Origin: a virus | Lineage: Duplodnaviria; Caudoviricetes | Strand: one strand, 5' to 3' | Length of the DNA: 64,000 nucleotides | IMG/VR virus record: IMGVR_UViG_3300025383_000009 | Shown here: positions 22,952-44,076 of the stretch, one piece after another | Position numbering within the stretch: position 1 is the first letter of the stretch | How the letters are laid out: each line of letters starts with the position of its first letter | The notes under the pieces: model-generated | What the model saw: only the letters and a program-made list of their open reading frames with translations | Told to the model about the DNA's origin: nothing | The model's database searches: none | Made by a program: the position numbers and the translations under genes

Positions 22952-23965
22952 ATGAGTATTTTTATTGACAGACAATTCCTGCTTCGTGCATCGCCAAAAT
23001 TAATAAGGTTTACCAAAAAGAAGGACGACCTTTATAATTTCAGATGTCCTCTATGTGGCGATTCTACAAAAAACAAAACTAAATCTCGTGGCTATGTGTT
23101 TAGAAAGAAGAATGATTATTTCTATATGTGCCATAATTGTGGTGTTAGTACCACATTCTACAATTTTCTAAAGCAAGTTGATCCATCTCTTGTTGCTGAA
23201 TACACAATGGAAAGATATAAAAATGGAGAAACAGGCAACAACAATTATCCAAAACCACAATTTGAAGAATTCAAAACGGCAACACCAACATTTAAAAAAT
23301 CAATCAATTTACCATCCATCGATTCATTACCAGATGAACATTTTGCCAAAAAATATGTTATTGGCAGACAAATACCAAAACACTTTCACACACAACTATA
23401 TTATGCGGAAGACTTTAAATCATTTGTAAAAGATTTGGGTTTAGAAAAAGATTTAATTGATAATGATAAACGATTGGTCATTCCATTTTATGATAAAGAT
23501 AAAAATCTAATTGCTTTCCAAGGAAGAGCATTAGGTGAATCTAAATTAAGATATATTACTTGTAAACTTCAAGATAATAATAAAAAGGTGTATGGTCTTG
23601 ATAGAGTAATTAATGATTTACTACCAATCTATGTTGTAGAAGGTCCAATTGATTCATTGTTTATAGACAACTGTGTAGCAACTGCGGATTCTAATCTGGA
23701 ATCAATTTTGGACACATTTGACAAGAGTAAAGTCGTATTGATATATGATAATGAACCAAGAAATAAAGAAATTGTAAAGAAGATGGAGAAATCAATTGAC
23801 GAGCATTTCAATGTCGTTATTTGGCCAAAATATATAACAGAAAAAGATGTTAATGATATTATCAAATCTGGATTTACACAAGATGAATTGCTAGATATTA
23901 TTAAAGACAATACTTTCCAAAACCTACGAGCAAAAATGGAGTTTGTAAATTGGAAAAAGAACTAG
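22952..23965 (+). CDS. gp61: T4 gp61-like DNA primase
   Basis: Zn ribbon CPLCGD...CHNC; TOPRIM VVEGPIDS, YDNEPRN, KDVND. Confidence 0.95.
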   Translation: MSIFIDRQFLLRASPKLIRFTKKKDDLYNFRCPLCGDSTKNKTKSRGYVFRKKNDYFYMCHNCGVSTTFYNFLKQVDPSLVAEYTMERYKNGETGNNNYPKPQFEEFKTATPTFKKSINLPSIDSLPDEHFAKKYVIGRQIPKHFHTQLYYAEDFKSFVKDLGLEKDLIDNDKRLVIPFYDKDKNLIAFQGRALGESKLRYITCKLQDNNKKVYGLDRVINDLLPIYVVEGPIDSLFIDNCVATADSNLESILDTFDKSKVVLIYDNEPRNKEIVKKMEKSIDEHFNVVIWPKYITEKDVNDIIKSGFTQDELLDIIKDNTFQNLRAKMEFVNWKKN

Positions 23966-31460: not shown

Positions 31461-32134
31461 TAGCCTATAAACCAAGTAGTAATATTATTCATTTTGAATT
31501 TGATACTCGCAAAGAGATTACTACAACCTTTTTCCGTATTCAAGAATATTATGAATCACCATTAGAAGGCCTAGTAGGCAAAAAGTTTTCGGTATATGAT
31601 TTCTTAATTGAATCTATGGATAACATGGGTAATTTAAATTACTTCAATTTTTGGACAGGCTTTAACTTTCCGGATTATATTCTTAAAGAATGGATTAAAT
31701 TAAATCCACAAAAAGAATGGACACCTAAAGAAAAAGAACTAATTGATAAAATCAAAGAGAAGGTCAATTGGAATGAAAAGTTTTATGTCATTGGTTCATT
31801 AAAGACGGATAAGACTGCATATAGGCATGAAATGGCGCATGCTCATTATTATACTGAAACCTTATATAAGGTTGATATGGACATTTTAACACATAGGCTA
31901 TTGAGTAAGCATAAGAAACAATACCAAATCATTCGTAAGCATTTAATAAAACTTGGTTATAATACCAAAGTTATTATGGATGAAATTCAAGCATACCTAT
32001 CTACCGAACCAAAGAAATTTTTAATTGAAGAATTTGGTATCAATTATGAAGAATTATCACCACTTATTAAAAGATACCAAAAGACATTCAAACAATACCG
32101 TGAGCAATCATATGAGCTTGAGGTATACCAATAG
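31457..32134 (+). CDS. Hypothetical protein with HExxH (zincin-like) motif
   Basis: RHEMAHA...DEIQAY. Confidence 0.55.
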   Translation: MIAYKPSSNIIHFEFDTRKEITTTFFRIQEYYESPLEGLVGKKFSVYDFLIESMDNMGNLNYFNFWTGFNFPDYILKEWIKLNPQKEWTPKEKELIDKIKEKVNWNEKFYVIGSLKTDKTAYRHEMAHAHYYTETLYKVDMDILTHRLLSKHKKQYQIIRKHLIKLGYNTKVIMDEIQAYLSTEPKKFLIEEFGINYEELSPLIKRYQKTFKQYREQSYELEVYQ

Positions 32135-37504: not shown

Positions 37505-37785
37505 GTAAAGATGACGTATTATTGGGATTAATCGTTATATTAATAGCGATGATTTGGTACTATGGCTCAGAATATCATAATAATTATATTGATGAAGTGA
37601 CTAGAATAGACTCCGTGGTAAAGTCTGTAGATGAATTAGAAACTAAACTGATAATGTCTAATGAAGTGATTCAAACGCTCAAGGTTCAATTAGCCGATAA
37701 AGACTTGGAGATTATAGACCTCCAGGAAAAAATTAAGGGAACACGAAAACCCTCCGGAAAAAATTTCGATTCCACAAAAAAATAG
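37486..37785 (+). CDS. Membrane-anchored coiled-coil protein
   Basis: LLGLIVILIAMIWYY TM, then heptads. Confidence 0.55.
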   Translation: MDKIKIGKDDVLLGLIVILIAMIWYYGSEYHNNYIDEVTRIDSVVKSVDELETKLIMSNEVIQTLKVQLADKDLEIIDLQEKIKGTRKPSGKNFDSTKK

Positions 37786-37899: not shown

Positions 37900-37931
37900 C
37901 GGAGAGTGGCGCTGACTAGACGCCGATAAAA

Positions 37932-38063
37932 CTATTTGAACTGCTCGAATGAGCTCGTTGATTTGAACTCAGCGAATTCATCATGCTGAAACCACCTAGA
38001 GTCCGATACAGCATATTTTATTACCAATCCTAATACAATACCAATTAATAGTCCTTTAAGCAT
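37932..38063 (-). CDS. Small membrane peptide (43 aa)
   Basis: MLKGLLIGIVLGLVIKY...; GGAGG RBS on the minus strand. Confidence 0.55.
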   Translation of the reverse strand: MLKGLLIGIVLGLVIKYAVSDSRWFQHDEFAEFKSTSSFEQFK

Positions 38064-38352
38064 TTTCTACCTCCCTAATTATTGATTCAACCTTGTCCAC
38101 TGCTCTTCTATCATACCCGCCAATGTGCCAGTCATAATAGTGCCTAGGGGTATCACCGTATTCCTTCCAGTCGTATATGGTCACCACCGTGCCATCGATT
38201 TCTAGCACCCATTCACAGGTCACCTTATCGGATGGGTCCTCATCTGGACCGTAGGATGGTTCACCGAAGGCTGCCACCAGTGTATCATAGTCCGTATAGA
38301 CTTCGCCTTGGAGGGAAGTGCCTCCTGCTGAAGATAGCTTTTCGATTCTCAT
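38056..38352 (-). CDS. Conserved phage hypothetical protein
   Basis: TSLQG...FGEP...DKV.CEW...TIYDWK...WHIGG pattern. Confidence 0.65.
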   Translation of the reverse strand: MRIEKLSSAGGTSLQGEVYTDYDTLVAAFGEPSYGPDEDPSDKVTCEWVLEIDGTVVTIYDWKEYGDTPRHYYDWHIGGYDRRAVDKVESIIREVENA

Positions 38353-38618
38353 ACAGGCTCCTTTCTGGATTCCATCAAGTTGAACATGATGCATTTAGCA
38401 CGATTGAGGAACTGTCTAGCTTGATTCGCTTGGTCTGGAGATACCCAGCCGTCCTCGTTGAATTCAGCGCTGATGATTTCCTGTGCATCTGATAGGATAC
38501 CAGCTGCGAACATGAGCTCTGTGCCTGGGAAGGCTTGCTCTTTTACCATTCTCATAAGGGACGCTTTAGAGCATCCGTAAGCTTGTAATTCCCAATCTAA
38601 TTTTTCTTTTTCAGTCAT
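38349..38618 (-). CDS. Hypothetical early protein
   Basis: AAGGAG RBS; cassette promoter at 38646-38673. Confidence 0.65.
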   Translation of the reverse strand: MTEKEKLDWELQAYGCSKASLMRMVKEQAFPGTELMFAAGILSDAQEIISAEFNEDGWVSPDQANQARQFLNRAKCIMFNLMESRKEPV

Positions 38619-38679
38619 ATTTTTCTCCTTTTTAATTGTATGGCTAGGATAACACATCCATGCCAAAAGTCAAGCATTA

Positions 38680-39009
38680 TTAAGCGATTTCTGCTAAATA
38701 ATCTCGATAATCAATGGTGGGTTCGGCATAGCGGATCTCGCCTTCGTATTCGAGCTGGCTCTTTTCAAATGGAGACATCCAGTCATCCGCTTGGAGGGAG
38801 TATCCGATAATGTCTGAGCGGAAGAAATTGTTATTCTCCTCGATGTCCAAGCGAACCATCTCCACAACCTCAGCTGGGTCCACGCCTTGTGGAATGTTAG
38901 TGATTTTGTAGGATTGACCACCCTTCATTTTCCAGCGGTAGTCACCAGTGAAACCTTGGTGGGCGGCATAATTTTCTTGGTCTTGCGTATCGATTACTAA
39001 CATACTCAT
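38680..39009 (-). CDS. Conserved phage hypothetical protein
   Basis: TQ..ENY.AH...WK.KGG motif; AAGGAG RBS. Confidence 0.7.
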   Translation of the reverse strand: MSMLVIDTQDQENYAAHQGFTGDYRWKMKGGQSYKITNIPQGVDPAEVVEMVRLDIEENNNFFRSDIIGYSLQADDWMSPFEKSQLEYEGEIRYAEPTIDYRDYLAEIA

Positions 39010-39233
39010 TTTTTTATCTCCTTATCAATTATGTTCCATTATACAGAAAATGGATGGAATGTCAAGCAGAATTTTAGCCCCCTATGGAAGACGACCAGGG
39101 GTGGATTAGAAGACCAGATTAATTGCTGCCTTACCAATGGTGTCCATTATACAGAAACCAATGAAAAAGTCAAGCGAAATCTAGGGGGCCTAGGGGGCTT
39201 GACTTTATTGCCAGATGTGATATAATAGGGGGC

Positions 39234-39527
39234 TTAATTACAGCCCAAATACTGCTGAAACGGAACCACTCCACCGAATCCGTTTGGAGCCCATACGGTC
39301 TGATAGATGGGGCGGCAACCTCGACCGAACTGGCCAACGTAGGGATTAGCATTGTATCCATAAGAGCGATTAAGCTCATATCCTACGATGCCCCCTATAA
39401 TAGCTGGAGCGATCCAATTGTTACCACCGCCATGATGGTACCCACCGCCATATCCGCCTCTGAACCCATCGTGAGCCTGAGCCCCGATGGAGACTGATAA
39501 TAATAGAACTGCTAATAATTTGCTCAT
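39234..39527 (-). CDS. Secreted Gly-rich small protein
   Basis: Signal peptide MSKLLAVLLLSVSIGAQA; GGGYHHGGG; two C-terminal Cys. Confidence 0.7.
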   Translation of the reverse strand: MSKLLAVLLLSVSIGAQAHDGFRGGYGGGYHHGGGNNWIAPAIIGGIVGYELNRSYGYNANPYVGQFGRGCRPIYQTVWAPNGFGGVVPFQQYLGCN

Positions 39528-39727
39528 GCTTTAATCTCCTCTGCTTCCATATCATGATACCACACTTCCCTAGTTTCCCATCCGTCTTCCTCATAGAGGA
39601 CATTTGGATCTCCACTAGAATTCATTACTATTTCCATTGCCTCTTCAGCAGAGTCAGCCTCGATTGTATGAACCTCGGTCTCGATAAACTCTACCAATTT
39701 TGGTAGCCTTACTGTAAACTTAGCCAT
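39524..39727 (-). CDS. Small acidic hypothetical protein
   Basis: IEADSAEEAME motif; GGAG RBS. Confidence 0.6.
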   Translation of the reverse strand: MAKFTVRLPKLVEFIETEVHTIEADSAEEAMEIVMNSSGDPNVLYEEDGWETREVWYHDMEAEEIKA

Positions 39728-39860
39728 TTTATTTTCTCTCCAAAATATAGAGCCCGATGGTTATTATTACTAGTCCGATCCAGAGCCCTATTAAAAGTGT
39801 TATTAAATTATTCATAGTGTAGCCATCCTAACATATCCATACCAAAAGTCAAGCATTATT

Positions 39861-40184
39861 TTAGCGGTATAGATAGCCACCTGCCCAATCAGCGATTTCC
39901 TTCAATAATTCTAGATCCTTAACGATATTGAAACGGACACCCTTGGCAGGGGCTTTAAAGCTAGCTGCCTTATAGATATCGCCAGTCGCCTTCTCCACGA
40001 AGCAGTGGACAGAGCCTGAAAACTTAACCAATTGGCCTGTCTCCACATCATAGTCATGGCGGACAAGCTTATAAAAGCGCTTGCCTTCTTGGATATCAAT
40101 CTTCAATACATTATGAGTCCACTTGGCAGCATAATTGTCCTCGATAACCTCACCTAAAACCTTACAAAATCCTAAAACCGTCAT
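39861..40184 (-). CDS. Conserved phage hypothetical protein
   Basis: GSVHCFVEKATGDIYKAAS.KAPAK.VR.N pattern. Confidence 0.7.
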   Translation of the reverse strand: MTVLGFCKVLGEVIEDNYAAKWTHNVLKIDIQEGKRFYKLVRHDYDVETGQLVKFSGSVHCFVEKATGDIYKAASFKAPAKGVRFNIVKDLELLKEIADWAGGYLYR

Positions 40185-40242
40185 ATTTTTCTCCTTATTC
40201 ATTATGTTACCATTATATCAGAACTGGCAAAAAAGTCAAGCA

Positions 40243-40428
40243 TTAATTGAAATAATCGCCAGGGCTACAATAGTATGAATTTTCAAGCATAGGCATATCC
40301 ATCCAAGCATATGGCCCCATGTTTAAGGCATCCATAACCTGACGGTTCATCCATTGCATGGCTGAGCCAGCATCGGGTGCCTCCACATCATAGATGTTAT
40401 TCAATACATGAAAGTGGTATAATTGCAT
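40243..40428 (-). CDS. Small hypothetical protein
   Basis: AAGGAG RBS and its own cassette promoter. Confidence 0.6.
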   Translation of the reverse strand: MQLYHFHVLNNIYDVEAPDAGSAMQWMNRQVMDALNMGPYAWMDMPMLENSYYCSPGDYFN

Positions 40429-40652
40429 TTTTTATCTCCTTTGTCATTATGTTACCATTATACATGATTCCTACCAAAAGTCAAGCATTTTTTAGCCCCA
40501 AATAGTGCTTGACTTTCCCCTTGGATATGATATAATGGTTCCACACCGCCCCTGCGTGCTAGCTCCAATATGACCGTTTTATGACCAAAAATAGTGCTTG
40601 ACTTTCCTGCCAATTAGTGTAGAATGGTACTTGAATTAATAAGGAGATATAA

Positions 40653-41369
40653 ATGTTATTGACTAGAGGCAATCCAAAAATCATGAAGGGCGAAAAGAAG
40701 GGCTACCTAACCAGTATCCTCCATTTAGCACCTGCTGACTTATCAGGCCACCAAACCTGTCCTAAGGCAACCGCAGGCTGTAAAGCTGCTTGCTTGAATA
40801 CAGCAGGCCGTGGTGGTATATTCAAGAAGGGCGAAAATACCAATGTAATTCAGCAAGCCCGTATCCGTAAAACCAAGCGCTTTTTTGAAGCTCGTGAGCA
40901 ATTCATGGAAGAGCTAGCACTTGAAATACAGAGCACCATCAAATATGCTGAAAAGAAGGGATTAATCCCTGTATTCCGTTTAAACGGCACCAGTGATATC
41001 GCATGGGAGAAAATCAGAGTAGGACAATACCGCAACATGATGGAAGCATTTCCTACTGTCCAATTCTATGATTACACCAAAATAGTCGGTCGCACTGTAC
41101 CATTCAATTATAACCTAACCTTTTCTGCTGCTGACGGAAACGACCACGATGTTTACCGTGCTATCGAGCAAGGTTATAATGTAGCAGCAGTATTTGATAA
41201 GGGCTTACCAGAGCAGTACCTAGGTCTCCCTGTGATTAATGCTGATGACACCGACCTTCGCTTCCTTGATCCTAAGGGTGTTATTGCCGGTCTCAAGGCG
41301 AAGGGCAAGGCTAAGAAGGACACCAGTGGTTTTGTCAAGAAAACCATACCAATCGCACTAGCTGCTTAA
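40653..41369 (+). CDS. Gp88-like protein, probable non-canonical radical-SAM/Fe-S
   Basis: CPKATAGCKAAC, FRLNGTSD, FYDYTK, LTFS and DLRFLD. Confidence 0.65.
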   Translation: MLLTRGNPKIMKGEKKGYLTSILHLAPADLSGHQTCPKATAGCKAACLNTAGRGGIFKKGENTNVIQQARIRKTKRFFEAREQFMEELALEIQSTIKYAEKKGLIPVFRLNGTSDIAWEKIRVGQYRNMMEAFPTVQFYDYTKIVGRTVPFNYNLTFSAADGNDHDVYRAIEQGYNVAAVFDKGLPEQYLGLPVINADDTDLRFLDPKGVIAGLKAKGKAKKDTSGFVKKTIPIALAA

Positions 41370-41552
41370 TCAAATAGAAGTCAGGCACCCCAAAAAGTGC
41401 TTGACTTTTTTATTGGATCGTGTATAATGGTATTTACCGGTTGGAGAGGAGAGCAGAGGTTGCGTGCTATTCTTATAGTATAGTCCGCTCGAAAGTGCTT
41501 GACATTTTTGCCATTTCATGTATAATAGCAGTTTAATAATAAGGAGATAAGA

Positions 41553-41699
41553 ATGACTATAACACGGAACCCAAATACGGGTGTTATAGAGGTGTCCGAT
41601 ATCATTAATAATCAATTGGTATCCATGCGCTTCTATTTTTGTGATAAGAAGTCAGCAGTAGCAGGCTTCAAGGAATATGTAAAGGCTATCACAAAATAA
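41553..41699 (+). CDS. Small protein (48 aa)
   Basis: AAGGAG RBS; promoter at 41499. Confidence 0.6.
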   Translation: MTITRNPNTGVIEVSDIINNQLVSMRFYFCDKKSAVAGFKEYVKAITK

Positions 41700-41702
41700 T
41701 AT

Positions 41703-41827
41703 CAGAGGTGCTCGGAAGTTCCTCAGGATACCTCTGGAACTTTCGGTATCGTGCTGAGAAACTAACACCAATACAGGAGCACTGGCCAGCGAAGGCCATG
41801 GCGAGGTATTACACGCAGGCGCCTCGC
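41703..41827 (+). ncRNA. Candidate structured intergenic RNA
   Basis: GC-rich; stems 41712-41722/41736-41746, 41703-41709/41730-41736 and 41801-41806/41822-41827. Confidence 0.35.
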
Positions 41828-41976
41828 TAAGTCCGTGAGGTATCATTGAGGTACTTGAGGTAAGACTATTGAGGTACTATACAGGTTTTAATGAGGTAAA
41901 AGTATCCAAATAATGCTTGACATTCTATCCAAATATGATATAATGGTAACATTAATAATAAGTGAGGTAAAGTAAT

Positions 41977-42156
41977 ATGACTGGTAAGACTATTTTTGAG
42001 GTAAAGAGGTTATCTACTGATGCACCAGAGGTAACGGTTCAATTGGATTATGATGAGTTGGAGTATATGTTTTATGCTATACGGAACATTGATCCAGATT
42101 ATTATAATGAGGATATCGTTAATAAGATAGGAAGGTTATTTGATTATGATAGTTGA
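41977..42156 (+). CDS. Small acidic protein (59 aa)
   Basis: GAGGT RBS; promoter at 41917. Confidence 0.55.
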   Translation: MTGKTIFEVKRLSTDAPEVTVQLDYDELEYMFYAIRNIDPDYYNEDIVNKIGRLFDYDS

Positions 42157-42526
42157 TAAGATGCCGGCAGGTAAGTATTATGTGGGAGACCTATGCTATG
42201 TTATGCACAATGAATGGGACGAAGCATGTAATATAATGTTCGATCCAACCAATGGTGACCCAGGCGAAGGTGTATTTTCATTAAAAGATGGTCGTAAGTT
42301 TGCTATCTTTGGTACAGCTTATGGTGATGGTGTTTACAATGACCAAGAAGGTCGTGAATATGCTGTGGATTCTGGTTCAATCGGTTGTATCAAGGTTGAG
42401 GATATCAATCAGGACGAAATCCGTGAGGACTTAGGCAATATCATTGATTTTCCTAATGACTTCTATGTTATTAAAAAGAACGGTGGCGAATTGATTTTTG
42501 GTAGAGTATGGATCGATACCGAATAG
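42140..42526 (+). CDS. Conserved phage hypothetical protein
   Basis: YYVGDLCYV, TAYGDG.Y.D and VDSGSIG. Confidence 0.7.
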   Translation: MIMIVDKMPAGKYYVGDLCYVMHNEWDEACNIMFDPTNGDPGEGVFSLKDGRKFAIFGTAYGDGVYNDQEGREYAVDSGSIGCIKVEDINQDEIREDLGNIIDFPNDFYVIKKNGGELIFGRVWIDTE

Positions 42527-42593
42527 GCTAAATAATGCTTGACTTTTGGTATGGATGTGATATAATGGTTGTATTGAAATTAGGGAGGTAAGT

Positions 42594-42839
42594 ATGGTAG
42601 CGTTTTCATTGAATACTAGAACTGGTGAGACCAGAAACTTGGATGACGGTTCGCTTCGTAAGATAGAACTAACCGAGGTTGAGGTAAAGACTATTTTAGA
42701 ACTGGTTAGAAGTGAGATATTTTTAAACGGTGATAGAATGCCAATGGACAAGTTGGAAGTGCTTGACGATATTATACAGGCGCTTGCTTACGAGGAAGAA
42801 CCCGAAGGCAATTGGACTAATTCTTATTATAGACCATAG
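42594..42839 (+). CDS. Hypothetical early protein
   Basis: GGAGG RBS; promoter at 42539. Confidence 0.6.
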   Translation: MVAFSLNTRTGETRNLDDGSLRKIELTEVEVKTILELVRSEIFLNGDRMPMDKLEVLDDIIQALAYEEEPEGNWTNSYYRP

Positions 42840-42841
42840 GA

Positions 42842-43072
42842 GTGAATATGAACTTAAAACCATTTAGAGTAGAAGGTGAAGAAGCCCGTTATAAGAATAT
42901 ACCAATACGCCGATTGGATGAGGTAAGGGCTTATTTCAAATCTCAAGGTAAAAAAATTCGGGTGAGGTTCAGAGGTAGCAGAACTAACCCGTTGGATCGA
43001 AGGTCGCCTAACCAAAGGTACCAAGATTGCGTAAGAATGTTTGCCGATAGATTTTCGGTATACATGAGGTAA
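42842..43072 (+). CDS. Small basic protein
   Basis: Arg-rich; AGGAG RBS. Confidence 0.55.
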   Translation: MNMNLKPFRVEGEEARYKNIPIRRLDEVRAYFKSQGKKIRVRFRGSRTNPLDRRSPNQRYQDCVRMFADRFSVYMR

Positions 43073-43167
43073 AGTACCAAAATAATGCTTGACTTTTATA
43101 GTGGAAAGTGTATAATGGTACATTGTAGTATGAGTAGTTTATTATTAATTTTGAGGAGTATTATATT

Positions 43168-43542
43168 ATGGCAACATTAAAAATCAGAAAAGGCAAAACT
43201 AATCGCCACGAGAAAATCACGCAAGTGCTTTTATCTGGCAAAGTAGTATCGCCTGACGAAATCAAAGCAGTATTCAAAGGCACAGACCAAGAAGCGGTGT
43301 TATATCGCTTATCAACCAATATTTACAATATTCGCCGTGACGGTGGCATTGTTAAGGTTGTAAAAGATGGTCGTAAGGTGACTGGTTATCAATTGGTTAA
43401 TCCAGATGCTTTTGATGCTAACGGTCGTTACAAGCAAGTTAAAGCTAAGGTTACAACAACCGCTAAGGTTGAGGTAAAGGCTGCTGAACCTGCTAAGGTA
43501 AAACCAGTAGCACAAGACAAAAAAGTAGCTCTCGCTGCTTAA
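43168..43542 (+). CDS. Probable winged-helix DNA-binding protein with Lys/Ala tail
   Basis: Helix-helix-RLSTNIYNIRRDG followed by beta hairpin GRKVTGYQL; GAGGAG RBS. Confidence 0.55.
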   Translation: MATLKIRKGKTNRHEKITQVLLSGKVVSPDEIKAVFKGTDQEAVLYRLSTNIYNIRRDGGIVKVVKDGRKVTGYQLVNPDAFDANGRYKQVKAKVTTTAKVEVKAAEPAKVKPVAQDKKVALAA

Positions 43543-43554
43543 TGTTAAGACTTT

Positions 43555-43650
43555 TGGCAGCTCAGTCATTAAAGAAACTGCCATTTTTAAAGCACATTCC
43601 AATCCAATTTCTTGGTAGCAAAGGCTTAATGCCGAGTGTGCTTTAAAAAT
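43555..43650 (+). ncRNA. Candidate structured RNA: small hairpin plus 17-bp stem closing a three-way junction
   Basis: 43583-43599 pairs with 43634-43650; inner hairpins CCAA/TTGG and GGC/GCC. Confidence 0.45.
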
Positions 43651-43671
43651 AAACTAAACGGGAGAAGTAAA

Positions 43672-44076
43672 ATGGCTTACATGAATCAATCTAAAAAGAA
43701 AGTAATTGCAGAGAACTTGAAACCTATACTCAAGAAGTATGGCATCAAAGGTTCATTATCGGTTAGAAACCATAGCACGATTAAACTATCAATTAAAGAA
43801 GGCTCGATTGACTTTCTATCTAACATTAAAGCAAATACAGGCAACGATTATCGCTTTCATTTGGATGCTGGTTATGTTGATGTGAACCCTTATTGGTATC
43901 ATCAGCACTTTTCTGGCAAGGCGAAAGAATTTTTAGAGACCGTATTCAAAGCGATGAAGTCAGCTGATTGGTATGATGAAAGTAATGCTCAAATAGATTA
44001 TTTTAATACTGCCTATTATGTTGATGTGAATATCGGCGATTGGAAGAAACCTTATAAATTAGTGGAGGGCAATTAA
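43672..44076 (+). CDS. Conserved phage hypothetical protein
   Basis: MAYMNQ..K, LSVRNHST and DYFNTAYY..VNIG.W.KPY. Confidence 0.7.
   Translation: MAYMNQSKKKVIAENLKPILKKYGIKGSLSVRNHSTIKLSIKEGSIDFLSNIKANTGNDYRFHLDAGYVDVNPYWYHQHFSGKAKEFLETVFKAMKSADWYDESNAQIDYFNTAYYVDVNIGDWKKPYKLVEGN

Follow-up and report, generated by a model that had tools for sequence, protein, structure and literature searches.

The cluster of TGAGGTA repeats at 41836-43476 forms the trailing part of a larger element present in single copy, composed of a conserved core, an array phased at ~11.3 bp, a sigma70 promoter and a trail of AGGTA words that continues on one strand for 1-1.7 kb. The window, i.e. the whole 64,000-nt stretch of DNA analysed here, taken from a 71-kb contig, belongs to an uncultured freshwater T4-like phage encoding a helicase, a ribonucleotide reductase, a CobS-like ATPase and a T4-like lysozyme. 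The cis element is real, conserved and, as far as our literature search reached, undescribed; in the literature searched, nothing was found on the origins of these freshwater T4-like phages or on where their packaging begins. The repeats appear to be the protein-binding part of a cis-acting DNA element whose most likely function, held tentatively and with slightly less than even confidence, is that of an early replication origin of the T4 oriE type. The features of the element and its surroundings are listed below in window coordinates.

37720-37765, plus strand: left-border element of the early island, CTCC-n-G-A6 twice, 32 nt apart
40653-41369, plus strand: GP88-family gene (PF17338) upstream of the core, an internal control with no AGGTA and with C-rich codons
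41389-41530, plus strand: tandem upstream sigma70 promoters, -35 at 41401 (ORF-less) and at 41499 (before a 48-aa ORF)
41709-41803, plus strand: conserved core, ~90 bp near-invariant upstream of the array in seven genus-level relatives
41803-41898, plus strand: non-coding repeat array with a unit of ~11 nt, GAGGTA at 41803 and TGAGGTA at 41836, 41847, 41856, 41870 and 41892
41905-41948, plus strand: near-consensus sigma70 early promoter at the array end, -35 at 41917
41963-41972, plus strand: repeat copy doubling as the ribosome-binding site (RBS) of a 59-aa gene with its ATG at 41977
41997-43476, plus strand: one-strand trail of in-gene, RBS and promoter-adjacent copies
43168-43542, plus strand: gene of an early 124-aa winged-helix protein (from its predicted structure), candidate binder

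TGAGGTA occurs eleven times on the plus strand of this region, exactly where the preliminary description had placed it: five copies are packed into 41836-41898, and six follow at 41963, 41997, 42680, 42919, 43065 and 43470. The decamer TGAGGTAAAG is likewise present in exactly five copies (41963, 41997, 42680, 43065, 43470), some of them inside ORFs. In the rest of the 71-kb contig, the copy at 32119 that had already been noticed is the sole other one on the plus strand, and three lie on the minus strand (405, 25204, 44535). GAGGTA is the hexamer with the strongest clumping in the contig, with 15 of its 20 plus-strand copies within 41803-43476, including four (41803, 42028, 42585, 42972) beyond those first listed; its whole-window count is weak by itself (15 observed versus 6.6 expected), the signal being the local clustering. 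For AGGTA, the word common to the relatives, 41600-43700 holds 19 plus-strand copies versus one on the minus strand. In simulated sequence of the region's own composition, at least eleven TGAGGTA copies arise with P <1/1500 under Markov orders 1-2 and 0.0007 under order 3, so that the clustering exceeds background at P<=0.0007. The 15 GAGGTA copies comprise six in non-coding DNA (41803-41898), two in RBSs (41963 and 42585, the only ones at ribosome-binding distance to an ATG) and seven within genes in three reading contexts. A Chi-like polar site, as had been suggested, is contradicted by this distribution: the word is not enriched genome-wide, since 15 of 20 copies fall in 1.7 kb and GAG-GTA encodes one of the 64 Glu-Val pairs elsewhere. 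The genome-wide, strand-biased over-representation of Chi/KOPS-type words was not found, the word standing at background outside the cluster. TGAGGTA is identical to the let-7 seed, which is taken as coincidence.

Upstream of the array, the part of the core shared across lineages consists of AGAAA(C/T)TAA (41757-41765), GCGA (41789) and GCG (41801), the latter two 12 nt apart, and core columns are invariant over four lineages. Six genomes (G000, G001, G007, G009, G015, G038) carry the core pattern, each of them once; the 79 other records gave no match, and the reversed control gave two. The first AGGTA follows the core box at a constant 47-53 nt, and in all array-bearing relatives a promoter stands after the array, 150-230 nt past the core box. 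Spacings between pairs of array copies peak at 11, 22, 33-34, 45 and 56, and the best period of 11.3 bp is partly a consequence of the tandem duplication of the 11-nt unit. The repeats are evenly spaced direct repeats, as in oriE, with a conserved word of only 5-7 bp.

Among close relatives, conspecific contigs are identical at all copies, and all the sister species found (via orphan ORFs) retain the cluster, with 4-8 array copies and CAGGTA/AAGGTA variants, so that the motif is present in relatives as well as enriched. The RBS copy has been lost in two sister species, the copy at 41963 being altered in L260 and L264, while L264 and L266 carry new motif copies at new positions.

Within genes, copies at 41997, 42028, 42680, 42919 and 43470 encode Glu-Val, the copy at 42972 lies in another frame, and that at 43065 reads Met-Arg-stop just upstream of the promoter at 43089. 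GAG-GTA is used for five of the seven Glu-Val pairs in the five trail genes, compared with the 1/64 elsewhere. Synonymous resampling from the genes' own codon pool yields 0.7 expected TGAGGTA copies versus five observed in the five ORFs (P<1/3000), a region picked after the cluster was seen; for the wider right arm of the island, P is ~0.0003-0.0007. Compared with L264, synonymous changes affect none of 18 motif codons versus 182 of 627 other codons (29%), although a single recently shared gene accounts for ten of these 18. The gp88 gene has no AGGTA where it lies upstream of the core (window, 0/kb) versus four where it lies downstream (G001, 5.6/kb), and its C3 is 0.48 upstream versus 0.19 and 0.15 downstream; one further gene family has 5.3 AGGTA/kb downstream of the core versus 0.9/kb. 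Position relative to the core, and not membership of the early class, thus predicts AGGTA, which points to a site acting at the DNA level.

These data also bear on a mostly neutral explanation, in which the array would stem from local slippage and the remaining copies from RBSs, Glu-Val pairs, a G-rich codon bias and duplicated promoter cassettes. GAG accounts for ~40% of Glu in the island genes versus 13% elsewhere, the copies at 41892 and 43065 have a common promoter-cassette context, and two copies are RBSs; however, the excess holds against the genes' own codon pool, the trail is also seen with unrelated genes and varies with a gene's place relative to the core, and L264 and L266 gained their copies at new positions, which makes this explanation very unlikely. 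The element shows a cis signal overprinted by position alone on the codons of unrelated, often exchanged genes, constraining the shuffling of the early island; its unusual feature is a polar signal that downstream genes, though exchangeable, come to carry in their codons.

More distant lineages show the same arrangement. G007, G009 and G015 combine core and array with downstream genes unrelated to those of the window; this lineage carries 12-16 plus-strand AGGTA in the 1 kb downstream and none or almost none in the 1 kb upstream, and the in-ORF excess over codon expectation has P=0.005 in G009, 0.0005 in G015 and 0.06 in G007. In the 157-kb G015, the AGGTA cluster is among the strongest 5-mer clumps and occurs once, and three DnaA boxes (two perfect, one near-perfect) with an 11-bp period are inserted between core and array; in the window, no box was found at the site and no perfect one in 36-46 kb. 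G001 and the complete G038 also carry the core, G038 with AGGATA repeats just upstream and without an AGGTA array. The G038 core derives from an nhmmer match with E=2.4 over 1.9 Mb, was missed by the first, array-weighted model (R1), and is accepted for its position, 1.1 kb past the double border element, and for additional shared words. As the repeat word varies among the lineages that share the core, the binding partner would be phage-encoded rather than rRNA or a fixed host factor. In the complete genomes G011, G014, G020, G034 and G039, the AGGTA array is absent and the core match is not significant. A match in G037 (E=0.001, upstream of gp88) tentatively resembles a further diverged core, and G008, G011 and G014 may possibly have more diverged ones; a match in G018 lies in coding sequence and was taken as chance. 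No gene exclusive to the AGGTA-type genomes was found to be a convincing partner, the primase gene being missing from the G015 assembly. Searches of Rfam, for tRNAs and by BLAST of annotated phages returned nothing relevant; loose repeat scans of viral contigs gave mainly coding tandem repeats and chance matches, with only L145 and L289 homologous, and exact core scans recovered only near-identical phages or chance matches.

Several related arrangements were observed in these genomes. In L041 (891-990), L051 and L136, cyanophage-like T4 relatives, an 11-bp-period array with TGAGGTA stands at the start of the early region and the core is absent; in L066 (G042:C1:200-250), of the same phage group, three TGAGGTA copies directly precede an early promoter, no core was seen, and the contig ends 200 bp further on. 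G034, a complete relative without the AGGTA array, has two tandem DnaA boxes with an 11-bp period in a non-coding gap at the early-region start (G034:C1:33291-33310). A mild one-strand excess of TCGG/CGGA (9-14 versus 2-3 expected) occurs in the 1.8 kb downstream of the core, or putative core, of G011, G012, G014 and G038, and is possibly the counterpart of the AGGTA trail.

The element is embedded in a divergent early island (~38.6-43.1 kb) in which near-consensus sigma70 promoters stand in front of small ORFans, comparable to those of the PeSL regions of T4-type phages (PMC4122927). The repeated promoters and shuffled ORFans of the island share this setting with PeSL cassettes (PMC2839356, PMC4122927); unlike PeSLs, of which there are many per genome, core and array are single-copy and lie outside the repeated cassette. 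Transcripts from the promoters at 41401 and 41499 would traverse core and array, and relatives have 2-4 such sigma70 promoters at most 660 nt upstream of the core. Between strains L147/L232, L260 and L263 and the window (41400-41550), whole ORF-less promoter cassettes of 80-200 bp have been gained or lost. Transcription diverges near 40490, 1.3 kb from the site, and the plus strand turns C-poor ~370 nt (-367) upstream of the core; this step in C content lies within 440 nt of the site in G000, G009, G015 and G038, and in most lineages at the upstream promoter, not at the core.

The proximity of repeats and promoters raises the possibility of an operator platform, on which an early regulator such as the 43168 protein would bind tandem AGGTA and switch the promoters at 41917, 42539 and 43089 on or off. 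Copies do lie 24-25 nt before the -35 of the promoters at 41917 and 43089 and over two RBSs, and the structural model of the 43168 product (pLDDT ~77-93, residues 11-90) predicts a winged helix-turn-helix (wHTH) fold, helix-helix-helix-beta hairpin, with Fur/ArsR-like matches (best E 0.04, none at E<=0.001); Pfam and PHROG searches with this protein gave no match. However, only two of ~14 island promoters have the word, the left arm has none outside one RBS, many copies lie deep inside ORFs, and the wHTH gene, at 62-82% identity, is also present in array-less genomes. The motif cluster is limited to the right arm, though promoters are alike on both arms. Regulation through such a platform is a distinctly unlikely role. 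Two relatives offer a partial parallel to it in a different word, TCGCAACT, which is found immediately before several early promoters of either arm (G011 at ~84.3-88.0 kb, G014 at ~90.3-94.0 kb); this word is operator-like and is absent from the window's phage.

Since the word is on the transcribed strand and includes GAGGU, an action at the RNA level was also considered, whereby the transcript would sequester 30S subunits or an RNA-binding protein, or would be marked for an endonuclease. The window's copy of the core folds as three hairpins (z -2.4), yet there is no conserved fold (consensus -0.87 kcal/mol, compensatory pairs absent), and the complementary word ('anti-repeat') at 41729 has T for C in six of six aligned relatives. 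Moreover, the word is absent from other early transcripts and the trail covers three separate promoters. Pairing with the anti-Shine-Dalgarno sequence, at ~-7.0 kcal/mol, is weaker than that of most of the phage's own early RBSs (~-8.5 to -13), and in relatives the weaker CAGGTA and AAGGTA replace the motif, which argues against the Shine-Dalgarno decoy proposed in the preliminary description. An RNA-level function is therefore highly improbable; a CsrB-like or anti-Shine-Dalgarno decoy RNA was rejected, as neither a conserved fold displaying the word nor strong pairing was found.

A packaging (pac) site or a site of DNA entry or its arrest would place a terminase small subunit or an entry factor on polar repeats beside a cut in the core, so that virion DNA would enter with the early island first. 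Recognition sites of the pac type are found at most a few hundred bp from the cut, whereas the trail extends over 1.7 kb, and the contig ends of the relatives scatter over the island with none in common. Nevertheless, the element is single-copy and polar, repeats flank the core on both sides in several relatives, and a GC-rich domain of 1-4 kb lies between the core and another conserved element, an A-tract; in the T4-like cyanophage S-PM2 read density steps 2-3x beside a variable ORFan region (PMC4503421), and the T5 injection-stop region contains repeats and DnaA boxes (bioRxiv 10.1101/866236). Against this, T4-like Melnitz phages are reported to be circularly permuted and without terminal repeats (PMC9004378). 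On balance, we regard a packaging or entry site as unlikely, though it is the strongest competitor of the origin reading. The T5 region resembles the site in being non-coding, repeat-rich and within a region of strong early promoters, and one relative here has DnaA boxes; it differs in that a long terminal repeat there carries eight DnaA boxes, all conserved (bioRxiv 10.1101/866236), compared with none at the site in the window. No DnaA-box series of the T5 injection-stop type was found, there being no perfect box in 36-46 kb.

The A-tract element at the left border (37720-37765) is a candidate terminus or packaging signal. In G000, G001, G015 and G038 it precedes the core by 1.1-4.1 kb, as it does the putative diverged core of G011 and G014, and it is tied to the core by position only. 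It is doubled at 31-32 nt in three genomes, and GC rises there from ~32% to 44%, at the left edge of the early island. From this border to the promoter before the core (37900-41400), the DNA forms a domain that is GC- and C-rich on both strands, 1-4 kb long in relatives.

In the origin reading, single copy, phased repeats, tandem promoters directed into the site, divergence nearby, a C-poor step and DnaA boxes in one member together resemble the oriE and R-loop origins of T4. The putative iterons or protein-binding array proposed earlier fit in that the element is single-copy, is phased at ~11.3 bp, changes in copy number, includes a conserved core and has DnaA boxes in one relative. T4 oriE has evenly spaced direct repeats (12-nt iterons), requires an early promoter and is located close to a switch in transcription, the iterons' own role being ill defined (PMC3016281). 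The present site shares with it a T4-like phage, a cluster of evenly spaced direct repeats, and an early rather than middle promoter near a switch in transcription and composition (promoters 41401 and 41499, divergence ~40490, step -367); it differs from oriE in its 5-7 bp repeats on an 11.3-bp lattice, which come after a distinct conserved core and run on into genes for 1-1.7 kb. Against the assignment to an origin stand the shortness of these repeats relative to the 12 nt of oriE, the DnaA boxes in one member only and their occurrence in the T5 injection-stop region as well, the failure to find an initiator gene, the five complete relatives without array or significant core, the G038 core without array, and the C-content step at the upstream promoter in most lineages. 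The neighbouring small ORFs match no named PHROG or Pfam family, RepEA/RepEB having been looked for through family searches only.

By analogy with the R-loop origins of T4, where the displaced non-template strand is primed by the primosome (PMC3016281), transcripts of the tandem upstream promoters would open the DNA and displace the plus strand. A phage protein would bind the AGGTA repeats cooperatively on one helix face or, alternatively, the primosome would use the repeats on the displaced strand, and replication would then begin rightward. As in oriF and oriG (PMC3016281), there is an upstream promoter and the displaced non-template strand would carry the repeats. A downstream stretch is AT-rich (60-78% between +100 and +400 in the window; in G038, 88% immediately behind the core) and may correspond to their unwinding element. 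Unlike oriF and oriG, which need no repeats, the site has promoters with sigma70 -35/-10 rather than MotA spacing, and its AT-rich stretch overlaps a promoter; a MotA-dependent middle promoter was rejected on this spacing.

In a bolder form of the origin reading, which we regard as rather improbable, the element would be the primary origin of a large uncultured T4-like group and AGGTA the preferred primase site, concentrated on the displaced lagging-strand template over about one Okazaki length and rewritten by synonymous codons into the genes shuffled behind it. Primase sites are GTT in T4 and GTC in T7, and 5'-GTA would be the analogue. The primase and helicase genes of the phage lie at 22952-23965 and 11-1378.

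Plasmid iteron origins and R1 parC also consist of helically phased direct repeats of ~11 bp in variable copy number, as observed here; they differ from the element, which has no Rep or ParR/ParM gene beside it and a much shorter conserved word. The marks of a plasmid-type iteron replicon were not found: there was no Rep family match, and the word is short relative to iterons of ~20 bp. The site is precisely defined, single-copy and ~250 bp long, with a repeat word specific to the lineage, and so is clonable and testable. Elsewhere in the window, a 370-aa gene after the helicase (1375-2487) has a Pfam DruA match (E 4e-10) and is 67-76% conserved in four relatives.
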